Assembly: GCA_964016885.1 (NCBI GenBank)
Contig: OZ024741.1
Span: forward strand, 173,352,001-173,416,000
DNA: 64,000 nt
Direction of reading: 5' to 3'
Source: Eledone cirrhosa
Lineage: Eukaryota
Below are positions 5,017 through 54,876 of this stretch, in pieces. The translations under genes were made by a program, and so were the position numbers. Positions within the stretch are counted from its first letter, which is position 1, and each line of letters opens with the position of its first letter. Below the pieces are notes generated by a model. That model made no database searches, had not been told where the DNA came from, and worked only from the letters and a program-made list of their open reading frames with translations.

Positions 5017-5385
5017 TTAGAAAAGGAAAGTGAGGTTCTATACAAAACAGTGGATATAGAGAAAAGATGAAGTTGGAAATAGCACGGGAGATATATTTAA
5101 GGGTCTGTTTTTCTTTTTTGTAAAAAGTTATTTAACTTTTTACACTACATTTGACAAGATGGATTTTAATACATCGAAACCGGTCATTTTCTCATATACT
5201 TTATATACTTCATAAAAAAATGTTTAAAAAAGAATTGTCCCTTTCTTCTTTTAATAACATTATCTTTTTAATAACACTATCTTTTTAATAATGTCACTTT
5301 GACGAATCAAAAAAGAAAAACAGACCCTTAAATATATCTCTCGTGCTATTTCCAACTTCATCTTTTCTCTCTCTCGCTCTCTCTC
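5017..5385 (+). mobile_element. Penelope-like pLTR fragment with inverted repeat and decayed hammerhead
   Basis: 5058-5120 is the reverse complement of 5308-5370; internal TTGACAA-GATG..CATC-GAAAC-CG-GTC (5151-5185) resembles a mutated hammerhead core. Confidence 0.5.
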
Positions 5386-5405
5386 TATATATATATATAT
5401 ATATA

Positions 5406-8400
5406 TCATCATCATCATCATTTTACGTCCGCTCTTCCCTGCTCGCAAGGGTGGGATGGGTCTTATTCGGCACAGCATCTCTCCACTCGTCACGGTCCTT
5501 CGTCATCTCCACCGTGAGTTTCAACGATCTGAGGTCTGTTCTCACCACCTCCGCCCACATGTTTTTCGTGGTCTACCTCACCCACGTCTTCCTTCAACTG
5601 GCATTTCCTGGTACTTCTTCACCCATCGCTCATCCTCCATGCGCATCACATGTCCATACCACCTCAGTCTCCTCTCCCGTACACTACATTCTATCCCTCT
5701 CAGACACAGTTTCTCTCTCAACACATTTATGCTGGGTCGTTCACGCACATTTACATTGCACATCCAACGGAGCATGCTTGCCTCATTTCTCTTCAGCCGT
5801 TGCATATCCTCTGCAGTTGCTGCCCATGTCTCACTACCATGCAGCATCGCGCTCCTCACACAAGCCTTTCGTACGCAGGGAGAAACCCTTCTTCGTCAGC
5901 AGAGGAAGCAGCTCGCTAAACTTCTTCCAACCCATCCTTATTCTAGATACTATGACCTCGGAACACCCTCCTCCCATGCTAATCTGATCTCCTAGGTACC
6001 GGGAGCTATCCACCACTTCTATAGCACTCTCCTGCATTTGAAAAATGTGTCTATCAATGCAACTTCTACTGTCTAATTTCCCTGTACATCTACTGCATAC
6101 ATATTTCTCCCTTACCCAGGATCTGCATTGTGTGCATTTTATAGAATTTATGCCAGTTCCTTTTCTGCGTATCAAACATGGCCATTTCCCTGACGGAATC
6201 AGAGTTTTGTCCTCTTTTCTACTCATCAACACTTTTGTCTTAGCTAGGTTCACTCTCAGTCCTCTTGCTTCCAACTGCTGTTTCCATAGCCAGAATTTAT
6301 TCTCTAGCTCCTCTACTGATTCTGCTATAAGAACCAGATCATCAGCATAGAGAAGTTCCCATGGACAGCCAGTCTTAAACTCCTCTGTTATGGCTTGGAG
6401 GACTATAATGAACAAGAGCGGGCTGAGAACCGAACCTTGATGTACTCCTACTTATATCTGGAATTCCTCACTAAACTCCATTCCTACCCTTACTTTAGTG
6501 AGAGTACCTCTGTACAAAGTTTGCACTATCCTCACAAGCCATTCCTCAACACCTAGTTTCCTTAGGGACCACCAGATGGCAGATCGGGGTACCCTATCAA
6601 AGGCCTTCTCTAAGTCAACAAAGGCTAAGTATAGTGACTTATTTTTCTCTAAGAACCTCTCTTGCAATTGTCTCACCAAGAAGAGGGCATCTGTTGAACT
6701 CTTCCCAGGCACAAAACCAAACTGCATCTCATCTAGTTTTACCCTTTCTCTAATTAGTTGTGTTAATATCCTTTCTGCCACTTTCATAACCTGATCCATC
6801 AGTTAACCCCTATAATTGCTCCACTTTGTAGCAATTTATGAGAATACTGCTGCACCAGTCTTTGGGTATGACACCACCATATATAGCCTGATTGATGATG
6901 TGTGCAACCAGTTTAGTGCCTACGTCCCCTGATGCCTTCAGCATCTCAGCAACTATTCCCGATGGTCCAGCAGCCTTACCATTTTTCATTTCCTTAATCG
7001 CCTCTTGGACCCTATATTCGTCAATCTCAATAGCTGGTCCCTCTGTCAGATCTACTAAGGGTAATTTCTCTCTCTCCCATTCGTTCTCCACATTCATCAG
7101 TCTCTCATAATGACATTTCCAGGCCTCCTTTTTCAGATCATTCGTGACACTAAGTACACCGGCATCATCCCGGACCCACTTATCTCCAACAACATCCTGA
7201 TTTGCATTGACACACTGTCTGCAATGTGGAACACCGCATGCCTCTGATCTTCCCGTCGCAGAACATTGGCAAACCTCCTACTCTTAGCCTCCCTGTGTGC
7301 TAAGTACACCTGATGTCTAGCTTCTCTCTTAGCGGCTGTATATTCTTCCCTACTCCCACCCTTTTTCCAAGCCTTCCATGCTAGTCTTTTGTCTCTAATG
7401 GCCTTATCTACTGTGCTGTTCCACAACCAGGTTACTCTCTGTCTGGTTGGAGCTCTGCTCCAGCCACAAGTTTCATCAGTAGCCTGCAGCAAGTTGTCAC
7501 GTAAGAAATTCCAGTTATTTTCTATGTCATACGTCTCTAAATCGTCTTCTTTTTCGTCATATACATCTTGAAGGGCTTTCCTAAATTTGTATTTTAGTGA
7601 AAGGTCTTTTAGCTTCCAGACCTTTCTTTTCCACACCTTCCTGTATGTCTCATTCCATCTCTTGCTTACTGAGATATCACTAATGACTAACCTATGCTGT
7701 GGGGTACATTCTTCCCCAGGGTATGCCTTGGTATTAGACACTATCTGCCTGTCCCGCTGCCTAACTAGTAAGAAGTCAATCTGGCTTATGTGCTCACCAG
7801 ATTTGTAGGTTATTAGGTGATTGGCAGGTTTCTGGAAGTTTGTGTTGCAAATATTCAGTGTACTTGCATCACAAAATTCAAGATGTCTCATTCCTTCTTC
7901 ATTTCTTGAGCCGTAACCGTGCTCACCATGTACCCCAGTGTAACCATCCTGGAGCTGTCCAACATGACCATTGAAGTCCCCCTGCTAGCATAACGATGTC
8001 TCTGTCCTCTGTCATTGCGGTTGTTTGTAAAAGTTGCTCGTAAAAGCAGTCTTTCTCATCTTTGCCTAGGCCTGCTTGGGGAGCATAGGCAGAGATGATT
8101 GTCAGTAGTCTCCTGCCTACAACTAATCTAAGCTTAATCATTCGATTACTAACTCAAACTTCCTCTATTGTCTTATTGATCCATCTCTCAGTCAGGAAAA
8201 TGCCTACTCCCCCTAACCCATCATCCTTACCTACCCAGAAAAGCTTATAGCTAAGATGTTTGCCTGCGACTAGTCTCGCAGAGGCACCTCTCCATCTCAC
8301 CTCTTGCACGCAGCACACATCCACATGCCTTCTCTCCAGCATCTCCGCTATTTCAGCAGATCTACCTCTGAGAGTGCAAACATTAAGTGTTGCAGCTCTG

Positions 8401-8465
8401 AGATGCAACGTCTTCATATTTTGTTGTTGTTCCTATTTGTTGCTGTGCTGATAAGCGTTTTGGCA
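5406..8465 (-). mobile_element. near full-length RTE LINE ORF2 (AP endonuclease + RT), pseudogenised
   Basis: successive frameshifted ORFs: TLNV..QEVRW, SAYAPQ, SQIDF..PQHRLV (APE); KAAGPSG, QFGF, FVDLEKAFD, YADDLVL, RYLG (RT); (CAT)n tail at 5406. Confidence 0.95.
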
Positions 8466-8505
8466 TATATATATATATATATATATATATATATATATAT
8501 ATATA

Positions 8506-52570: not shown

Positions 52571-53184
52571 TCATCATCATCATTGTCATTTTAACTTCCT
52601 CTTTTCCTGCTAGCAAAGGTTGGACAGATCTACGTAGACCAAGCTAGTACTGAAGCAGTGGCTACTGATCTCTCAGACAAACCAGAGATCTGTCATCTCA
52701 TTTATGTATTGTCTCATGTTCTTCCTAGTTCATAGGGGCAGTTGTCATGTCTTTGTTACAACTGAGGGTCCTCCTGATCTTTTGTTTGGCAAGCTTTATG
52801 CAACTGGATGCCCTTGCTATCACTAACCACTTTAGAGCGAGGCTGTCACACCTTGGCGCAACTGAAGAGTCCTCCCAACCCTTTGTTTGGCAGGCCCTCC
52901 ACTGTTGGATGCCCTTCCCAGGAGGGTGGGGGAGGCCAAATTGAAATACAGTGTATTTTATCAGATATGTGGTAATGAAAGGATTAAAGTGTTTATCATC
53001 ATCCTCATCATTTTACTTTCACCTTCATTATTTCACTGTTACCAATTTTATATAGCAGAATCAGTGGCTGCTTCAAATGGTTTGGTACAAAAAGAGTTAA
53101 AACAATTACAATATGATGGTAAAAACCTTAGAATTTACACAAGAGTGTGTTTCTTTAGCACCAACCCTCACAATTTTTAGTCAT

Positions 53185-54410
53185 TTCTGTTGGGAGGTTT
53201 AGTTTCTTAAGGTCAGTCTTCACAACCTCATATCATGTCTTCCTGGGTCTACCTCTTCCATTTGTCCCAGAAACTGGGGTTTCCCTGCATTTCTTTATGA
53301 AGCTGTTAGCTTCCATGTGCATCACAGGTTCTCACCAATGCAGTCCCTCTCTTGCATACTACAGCCAATTTCTTTTCTCTCAACTTGCTTATGCTATGTT
53401 ACTCATGCACACTAGCATACTCGACTCCTTTCTTTCTAGCCACTGCAGGTCTGCTGCAGTCAAGGCCTATGTTTCACTGCCATGTAACATTGTAGTTTAC
53501 ACACAAGCATCATACAGTCTACCATTCACTCTGAGAGAAAAGCATTTTGTTATTAGAACTGGTAATAGATCTCTAAGCTTCTCACATTCTGTTCTTACCT
53601 TAGCTATTACACTTTTGGCGCATCCTTCCCTACTACTAATTTGATTGCTTAGGTAGCAAAAGCTGTCAACAACTTCTATGGAGCCCACTTGGCAGCTGAA
53701 GGAATCTATTTCATGTATGCTCTTTGTGCTCACTTCCTCGGTGCATCTGCTGCATGTAAAGTATATCTTTTCTGTTAGCCTGCCTGCAATCCCACTCCAC
53801 TTCTTGTGTGTCCATAGATTCCATTGAGTCCATCTTATGGAATTTCTGCCCACCCCTTTCTGAGATATTGAACAAGGCAATTTCCCTGATGGCATAATCT
53901 TCCTGTATTCTTCCCTACTTATTAGGACTTTTGTCTTTGCTATATTTTCTTTTAGACCTTCTAAATCTAGGTTCTTCTTCCATGCTTGAAATTTTGCCTC
54001 CAATTCTCCTACAGATTCAGCTATGAGGACTAGGTCATTAGTGTATAGGAGCTGCTATGGAGTGCCAGTTTTAAACTCCTCAGTGATGGCCTGAAGCAGG
54101 ATGATAAATAAGAGTGGGCTGAGGACTGATCCCTGGTGTACTCCCACATGCACTTCAAATTCATCACTGTACTCATTGCTAACTCTCACTCTGCTGGTTA
54201 CTCCTCTATACATGGTCATCACAAGCCATTCGTCTACACCTAACTTCCTGAGTGCCCACCTGATTATAGAGTCTGGAACCCTGTCAAAGGCTTTCTCTAG
54301 ATCCACAAATACTTAGCAACTGTCCTGTAGTTGTCTCACAAGAAAAAGTGCACTGGTGGTACCCCTCCCTGACAAAATTCCAAACTGCATCTCATCTTAC
54401 TTGATTCTTT
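53185..54410 (-). mobile_element. decayed RTE LINE (RT half)
   Basis: DLEKAFDRV, GVHQGSVLSPLLF, degenerate PHD finger, FCYL, GRLYDACV. Confidence 0.88.
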
Positions 54411-54810
54411 CCAATATTGTGCCATCAGAACACAATGTATATATTGCATGAGTGAGATGTTGTCATCTGACTTTCCTAGCCCCAGAGTGTGAGGATCTGT
54501 CTAACCCAGGCAAACATGGAAAATAAACATAAAACAGTGATGAGGATGATGAGGATCTCGCTCTCCCTCTCTTTATATATATATATAAATAAACAGAAAT
54601 AACAATGCAAACGACACAAATATATTAGTTTTACGCTTGATATAGTAGGAAATGAGGCTTATATATATATATATATGCAGAGGTTGTATTTAATTAGTTG
54701 GGATTCAACAAGCTTAAACATTTTTATAACTGATATAAAGCACTCAACAGATTAGTGGAGTAAATATTCAATATATTAATAAATGGAAACTATATTTATA
54801 AAACCATAAT

Positions 54811-54876
54811 TATTTTATTATATATATTTCAAGGGCAACCAAGGAAAATTTTGGTGCGCTTTCATCGGGTAAAATA
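54811..54876 (-). ncRNA. type I hammerhead ribozyme (U4 changed to C)
   Basis: minus: TATTTTAC-CCGATGA-AAGCGCACCAA..TTGGTTGCCCTT-GAAA-TATATA-TA-ATAAAATA; paralog of 9885. Confidence 0.65.

Follow-up and report, generated by a model that had tools for sequence, protein, structure and literature searches.

The 64-kb window analysed here (64,000 nucleotides; positions 173,352,001 to 173,416,000 of contig OZ024741.1, assembly GCA_964016885.1, Eledone cirrhosa) contains genuine hammerhead ribozyme motifs. They form part of the terminal repeats in many families of Penelope-like elements (PLEs) and in their miniature derivatives, an association that is already known. We hold with good confidence that the motifs are type I hammerheads located in the pseudo-long terminal repeats (pLTRs) of at least nine PLE families and in non-coding derivatives of them, and that the insertions into (TA)n were likely primed from both ends of the target on uncleaved RNA. 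The window has a GC content of 36% and contains many TA tracts, short interspersed elements (SINEs) and fragments of long interspersed elements (LINEs), a mix of repeats that resembles those of cephalopods.

A strict scan of the window, demanding the core, a stem I of at least 4 bp, stem II, a palindromic helix III and a UH site, returned three motifs, where 200 block-wise dinucleotide shuffles averaged 0.015-0.025. A wider scan returned four intact motifs, with cores at 8908 (-), 31644 (+), 32125 (-) and 46505 (+), against 0.05 per shuffle (60 shuffles) and none in the reversed window. Each of the four possesses the conserved core, the three helices and the NUH site of a type I hammerhead; both scans overlook genuine variants, such as those at 11119 and 5151. 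An earlier note on this DNA had proposed covariance models or structural descriptors as a check, and the two kinds of search differ in their outcome: the structure scan recovers the four intact motifs, whereas the Rfam models place no hammerhead family among their 113 matches at E ≤ 10, which consist only of microsatellite and hairpin noise.

At all 14 coordinates where the note had placed a hammerhead, a full or half motif is present, and its reading of type I hammerheads with palindromic stem III from several families is borne out, the sites sorting into nine repeat families (A, B, C1, C2, D, E, F, G and H). Several details require revision. The motif at 9885 (-) is present, but this copy has lost U16.1, which is kept in 23 of the 25 best genomic copies, and the motif at 54811 (-) carries two substitutions where stem I meets the core. 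At 11119 (+) the motif stands with a U4C core, a family-wide change found in 12 of 15 scanner-positive copies with the same helix III and the same stem I start; one study describes U4C as a weak yet viable natural variant (PMC3088659). The motif at 5151, which had been called decayed, instead carries U3-A8, the compensatory form of the C3-G8 pair, a covariant pair shared by most of 21 listed copies and by the two pLTRs of full-length parents. The 3' halves at 31922, 33798 and 54971 belong to a family (G) that also carries U3-A8; they are present as described, except that helix III is a true 5-bp helix and not a short palindrome. The fold-back proposed in place of stem I at 30150 (+) is confirmed as two family H arms that meet head-to-head at 30149/30150, a 4-bp palindrome formed where stem I ends and the core begins, with loss of the 5' strand of stem I. 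The stem II pattern taken from longer family G copies gives 348 exact matches; a family G parent with a C3-G8 core directly ahead of a perfect stem II was sought and gave 0 matches, the parent having U3-A8. We also note two long family G arms elsewhere (L198, C17:20000001-20010000), viewed up to the edge of stem I, whose stem II matches the commonest miniature subfamily and whose core is apparently not U3-A8, possibly being a C3-A8 mismatch.

The abundance of the motifs was estimated from 59 evenly spaced 10-kb stretches (590 kb), picked by position alone with unplaced contigs excluded. The wider scan found 47 motifs in this sample, compared with 0-1 in six shuffles and none in the reversed sequence, so that the description of the population as very dense holds well beyond the window. 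After subtraction of background the density is 78 per Mb (bootstrap 47-112), from which about 2.3 × 10^5 motifs (1.4-3.4 × 10^5) are estimated for the 3.0-Gb assembly; the window itself, at 4 in 64 kb, is representative of this genome and has no special density. The 47 motifs, one or two of which are probably false, comprise 21 stem-I/helix-III combinations and 15 helix III inserts, with 38 C3-G8, 7 U3-A8 and 2 U4C cores; in addition to family F, at least three unrelated stem sets of the sample carry U3-A8. When the demand on helix III was dropped, a perfect 6- or 8-nt palindrome was found in 31 of 50 motifs, 9 of the remaining 19 came from one satellite, and the reversed control gave one motif and no palindrome. 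The proposed targeting of (TA)n is likewise upheld, a dinucleotide tract lying within 300 nt downstream of 42 of the 47 motifs (TA in 39) versus 26% of random positions. Most motifs (33 of 47) are solo, without a same-family partner nearby; ten have an opposite-strand partner within 700 nt.

Searches of the genome family by family gave hundreds to thousands of candidates each, of which 40 per family were scored. Every family has a fixed 3' end, ~25-250 nt past the predicted cut site and running into (TA)n; its copies are truncated to varying extents on the 5' side, often have inverted arms and may or may not include a tail of ~40-110 nt. These are the traits of endonuclease-bearing (EN+) PLEs, namely 5' truncation, tandem and inverted copies and an optional tail. 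A hammerhead in both repeats flanking an open reading frame (ORF) for a reverse transcriptase (RT) with a GIY-YIG endonuclease (EN), as in the pLTRs of PLEs, is found for family B (L250) and family F (L252-L254). The suggestion that all of the elements are non-autonomous is therefore not supported as it stands, since the family B copy at 31638 and the family F copy at 5151 are pLTRs whose parent RT-GIY-YIG elements are autonomous and have long open frames.

In family B, the 3' half of the hammerhead lies ~900 nt beyond the ORF stop at 17 of 20 loci selected by protein match, 14 of them with an intact motif, and at L250 the hammerhead is present in both pLTRs, separated by 3.56 kb. Its 809-aa frame (L248) contains DKT, a CxCX5C linker and, C-terminally, an EN of GIY-YIG-like type, lacks CCHH, and belongs to an element that targets (TA)n; by these sequence features the parent is a Hydra-type PLE, a clade assignment made from motifs rather than from an RT tree and accompanied by RWI where RWK is expected. 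The frame has no Pfam match, and PF26215 is present in homologues at 33-38%. Family F and a sister subfamily sit behind a Neptune-type ORF, the clade again being read from motifs instead of a tree. In the tandem L252-L254 the family F hammerhead occupies both pLTRs around a 777-aa RT-EN frame (RVT_1, E = 4e-7; GIY-YIG, E = 1e-5 in a sister copy) with DKG, a CX4CxxC linker, a CCHH-type EN and a microsatellite target, and the 777-aa frame is kept in many near-identical Neptune-type copies. The insertion at 5018..5386 in the window is the pLTR of this Neptune-type family. In the parent, an upstream 427-aa frame overlaps the 777-aa frame (L252:1346-2401, L253:1477-2757, L254); it has no Pfam match and is possibly an ORF1 expressed by frameshift.

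Two further groups were seen outside the nine families. A PLE family with a CxxC-linker GIY-YIG ORF (L006, L121, L164), which lies outside the density estimate, bears a minimal hammerhead whose 4-nt helix III insert is not a palindrome, and another hammerhead family, at L192:5806(-) and 6229(+), combines a long true helix III with a stem I of 8 bp and is predicted to be monomer-competent like family G. The otherwise unrelated tails of families A, B, C1, G and H (for example L214, L074, 10769-10845, 31770-31850) appear, by eye, to begin with a similar short hairpin signature immediately past the short end, which is a candidate element for RT binding or for initiation.

Apart from B, F and D, the families are seen as truncated copies or fold-back miniatures. 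Family D is a non-coding unit of 564 bp that occurs in partial tandems and in an array of six complete units that also has an inverted 5' copy, with an intact motif in 82 scanner matches over overlapping loci. It has the make-up of a non-LTR retrozyme, that is, non-coding tandem units with one type I hammerhead apiece. Outside family D such short tandem organisation is rare, a same-strand partner within 5 kb being present for 4 of the 47 sampled motifs. Among the sequencing runs listed for the family D unit none is recorded as RNA, from which nothing is concluded on expression; in contigs of four runs over the unit, none of 19 listed differences falls in the hammerhead, a small sample, with possible carry-over in two low-depth runs, that we do not count.

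The evidence on integration comes from the pairing of insertion ends. Among 109 two-armed insertions, 99 join a short end to a tail end, 10 join two short ends and none joins two tail ends. With families B and G removed (n = 40), the numbers are 31, 9 and 0, where independent choice of ends predicts ~6 tail-tail pairs by our own arithmetic; in the window, all eight two-armed single-family elements pair a short end with a tail end. From this pairing we infer priming at both ends of the target, followed by head-to-head joining. The palindromic junctions (30149/30150; stem II of family G) and the centres of the family G fold-backs, which by eye occur in both orientations relative to the tail, fit two-ended priming. 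In such a mechanism, the RT-endonuclease of the element would cut both strands of (TA)n, the short (proximal) site would start one cDNA and the tail (distal) site the other, and head-to-head joining of these 5'-truncated cDNAs would often take place where the sequence is self-complementary, as in stem II. Since all insertions span the predicted cut site, the template RNA would have been either uncleaved or re-ligated. For the lizard PLE, which is predicted to be a dimer, one study reports that both target strands are cut and extended in vitro, that two start sites inside the RNA bound the tail, and that ribozyme cleavage is dispensable in vitro (PMC11167929); a tail on one end alone is noted for PLEs in two others (PMC8557442, PMC3846280).

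Folding predictions bear on how the ribozymes would act. For six palindromic families, the predictions put the active fold of the monomer 1.6-6.9 kcal/mol above the minimum and the double-hammerhead fold, per copy, 3-10 kcal/mol below that active fold, and an intermolecular helix III of 8-10 bp would stabilise the active fold. Dimer cleavage, as modelled, fits these energies and the literature. The palindromic helix III would make cleavage require a second copy, so that solo transcripts would stay whole as templates and tandem transcripts would be cut to unit length, and cleavage would be unnecessary for each single insertion. The free palindrome of family D is predicted to pair with the core itself. 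We also observe that the upstream family D copy at 45949-46790 lacks the 5' core and keeps the palindrome and cut site; in the modelled double-hammerhead fold, the downstream core would cut the upstream site only.

Family G is the exception to a palindromic helix III allowing a dimer and is predicted to be active as a monomer. It has ~14 insertions in the 590-kb sample, with 3 of 24 arms fitting the core pattern, and 44 of 51 unbiased copies start 11-25 nt ahead of GAAA, without the core's 5' half. A ribozyme active as a monomer would destroy the very solo template that carries it, an effect that would favour half-ribozyme miniatures. The sharp 5' stop offers a lead, from an initiator consensus and the histogram of starts, to a transcription start inside stem II; the start histograms of the other families show no clear equivalent of this stop.

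Chance matches in AT-rich, repeat-rich DNA are an extremely improbable source of the motifs: the silence of Rfam and the nine look-alikes from one satellite in the relaxed scan might suggest them, and the shuffled and reversed controls of the 590-kb sample refute them, as do the family structure and the position in pLTRs. A population consisting mainly of non-LTR retrozymes, in which dimeric hammerheads cut tandems and the circularised monomers are copied in rolling-circle fashion by the RT of a PLE, is also improbable. The model is published (PMC7229834, PMC4209133), family D with its arrays conforms to it, and read-through of the predicted cut site in every insertion is equally expected from a re-ligated circle; against it stand the scarcity of same-strand partners, the identity of B and F as ends of autonomous elements, and the missing 5' core half in most family G copies. 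About as unlikely is the view that the hammerheads no longer cleave in vivo, the fold being kept as a structural or protein-binding element or merely carried in the pLTR. It draws on poor in vitro cleavage of published PLE hammerheads (PMC4209133), on frog dimers of which 8 of 9 did not cleave (bioRxiv 10.64898/2026.07.22.740005) and on RNA-seq reads that never ended at the lizard site (PMC11167929), and on the excess of half-ribozyme over core-bearing copies in family G. It has to be set against the core, UH site and palindrome kept over 21 stem-I/helix-III combinations and the recurrence of the compensatory U3-A8, which point to selection on the active site. Somewhat less improbable, and still unlikely, is that the elements are PLEs whose inverted arm arises by self-priming on an antisense template, with no second target-primed start. 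Palindromes at inverted junctions were so interpreted in rotifer PLEs (PMC3846280), junctions here are often palindromic (30149/30150, 54948/54949), and the TA flanks could be transcribed in both directions. Self-priming alone, however, leaves unexplained the two exact outer ends, one short and one tail, the lack of any tail-tail pair among 109, and the both-strand extension seen in vitro (PMC11167929).

Several observations weigh against the reading of the motifs as PLE hammerheads with insertions primed from both target ends. The short-tail count of 99 is inflated, since single ancestral units may have given rise to about 30 of the 45 pairs in family B and to many of the 23 in family G, and family A gives 8 short-short pairs among 22, at least four of which are sister subfamilies that the tail signature used may not fit. 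The mini-B family has a single fixed internal junction, and whole-cassette copying between TA tracts fits this better than fresh two-ended joining. Families A, C1, C2, D, E, G and H yielded no parent ORF, deliberate extension having been made for A only, where seven loci extended by 7-8 kb gave no linked ORF. Six of eight isolated motifs fold no better than shuffles (z above -2), the family F motif, with its weak stem I, likewise folds no better than shuffles, and hammerhead cleavage and expression of these elements are predictions. Two-ended priming on PLE transcripts can be taken further, in a tentative form to which we give somewhat less than an even chance: one RT dimer would prime both target ends, at the short site and the tail site, and join the cDNAs head-to-head, and this would be the missing step of integration. 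The same proposal holds that the motif count exceeds any published one found, and that a by-product would be self-propagating half-ribozyme fold-back miniatures (~70,000 for family G) that escape self-cleavage, perhaps with a promoter inside stem II.

The individual insertions in the window are arranged as follows. The family F insertion (5018..5386, +) consists of an inverted tail arm (5018-5120) and a direct 3' end; its hammerhead (core 5151-5157, U3-A8) has a 4-nt palindromic helix III, a weak stem I and a predicted cut after 5185. Family E at 8696..9391 (-) extends from its short end at 8696 to an inverted tail arm at 9278-9391 and bears an intact hammerhead (core 8908-8902, stem II of 113 nt, predicted cut after 8776); a tRNA-type SINE lies within this element at 8916-9097, with an 18-bp duplication immediately 5' of the core. 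Family A at 9852..10845 (-) has its short end at 9852, a 5'-truncated body, the hammerhead that has lost U16.1 (core 9942-9936) and an inverted tail arm (10769-10845). It is followed by family C1 at 10872..11340 (+), composed of an inverted short-end arm (10872-10920) and a direct arm from 10993 with the tail end, whose U4C hammerhead (core 11126-11132) has a predicted cut after 11206. The family H fold-back occupies 30084..30258 (+), short end to the left and tail end to the right, and a family E copy at 30298..30440 (+) combines an inverted tail tip with the hammerhead's 3' half (GAAA at 30356) and the short end.

The family B mini-element at 31540..31742 (+) joins an inverted tail tip (31540-31576) to the final ~165 nt of a Hydra-type PLE, with an intact hammerhead (core 31644-31650, predicted cut after 31698). 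Next to it, the family G fold-back miniature at 31770..31964 has an inverted tail and 57-bp perfect arms centred in the former stem II, and retains the hammerhead 3' half alone (GAAA at 31922). Family C2 at 32034..32142 (-), with TA tracts on either side, has an intact hammerhead (core 32125-32119, predicted cut after 32050), and an older family G fold-back miniature at 33668..33841 keeps the 3' half at 33798. The family D partial tandem at 45949..46790 (+) is non-coding and retrozyme-like with a period of 561 (564-bp unit elsewhere); its first copy begins within the core (GAAA at 46002) and its second carries an intact hammerhead with an 8-nt palindrome (core 46505-46511, predicted cut after 46576). 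A family A copy at 54677..54931 (-), whose tail end lies at 54677 and whose hammerhead (core 54868-54862) is damaged, is fused to a family G fold-back remnant at 54928..55092 (+), which has a tail end and the 3' half at 54971. The families nest in one another's TA flanks, as with H, E, B, G and C2 within 2.2 kb (29985-32142) and at many other loci, so that each insertion seems to supply the next targets.

The remainder of the window includes ~20 tRNA-type SINE copies, such as that at 8916-9097, and a 60-bp minisatellite of 11 units (48654-49311). We take broken frames at 25443-27542 (-) to be Helitron-type helicase/Rep, the stretches at 1401-2276, 4492-5016, 5834-7984, 45215-45583 and 53497-54054 to be fragments of one RTE-type LINE family, a fragment at 56533-57337 (-) to be transposase-like, and one at 61690-62085 (-) to be the restriction-like endonuclease of a non-LTR element.

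The association of hammerheads with PLEs being already known, the identity of the motifs is no surprise. This is a new and very large case of that association, and its value lies in scale and testability; less expected are the short-tail pairing and an abundant miniature family without the 5' core half. It is also material on PLE integration and on the role of the hammerhead, which is unsettled; how inverted 5' copies, tails and microsatellite insertions of PLEs arise is a named open task in PMC8557442. The genome offers on the order of 10^5 insertions whose ends are exactly defined, intact 777-aa frames in many near-identical copies on which biochemistry could be done, U3-A8 and U4C as natural variants of the core, monomer- beside dimer-type ribozymes, and miniatures with or without the catalytic half. 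Standard Rfam annotation overlooks the whole hammerhead population here. The highest published count found is 120,000 in axolotl (PMC7229834); a giant squid annotation gives 235 hammerheads (PMC6962438), and an octopus repeat annotation does not mention ribozymes in its available portion (PMC13282606). A literature search, with most subscription papers and supplements outside its scope, found nothing on this population or the short-tail pairing rule; the supplementary motif lists of PMC8557442 and PMC4209133 may already contain cephalopod families.

The family B parent shares with the Hydra clade (PMC8557442) the C-terminal GIY-YIG-like EN, DKT, the CxCX5C linker, the lack of CCHH, the hammerhead and the (TA)n target. 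It differs in the 3.56 kb between hammerheads against the usual <3 kb, in RWI against RWK, and in its great abundance, the Hydra clade being described as a small set of families. The family F parent resembles the Neptune clade in DKG, CX4CxxC linker, CCHH-type EN and microsatellite target and is distinguished by the overlapping upstream 427-aa frame and the U3-A8 hammerhead, with the clade assigned by motifs and not by a tree. Like animal non-LTR retrozymes (PMC7229834; bioRxiv 10.64898/2026.07.22.740005), family D is a non-coding tandem with one type I hammerhead per unit, its 564 bp being above the 150-450 bp of the former study and within the 51-972 bp of the latter; unlike them it has a PLE-style inverted 5' copy and a TA target, and it is known here from DNA alone. 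As in Poseidon PAc of Anolis (PMC11167929), 3' ends lie past the cut site, two starts bound the tail and the target is AT-rich, whereas the tails are mostly longer here (~40-110 nt against 30-40), and the use of the two sites at opposite ends of one insertion is not reported in the accessible text of that study. With published PLE hammerheads (PMC4209133) the motifs share the type I topology, the palindromic helix III, an extra nucleotide ahead of stem II and U3-A8, as well as high diversity, with many families per genome, mostly solo copies from truncated PLEs, and opposite-strand pairs 100-700 bp apart. They depart from them in longer palindromes (6-8 nt), in a stem II of up to 113 nt, in whole families with U4C, and in number, with ~2.3 × 10^5 estimated here against thousands (Schistosoma ~2,000 + 1,300; Xenopus 9,000).

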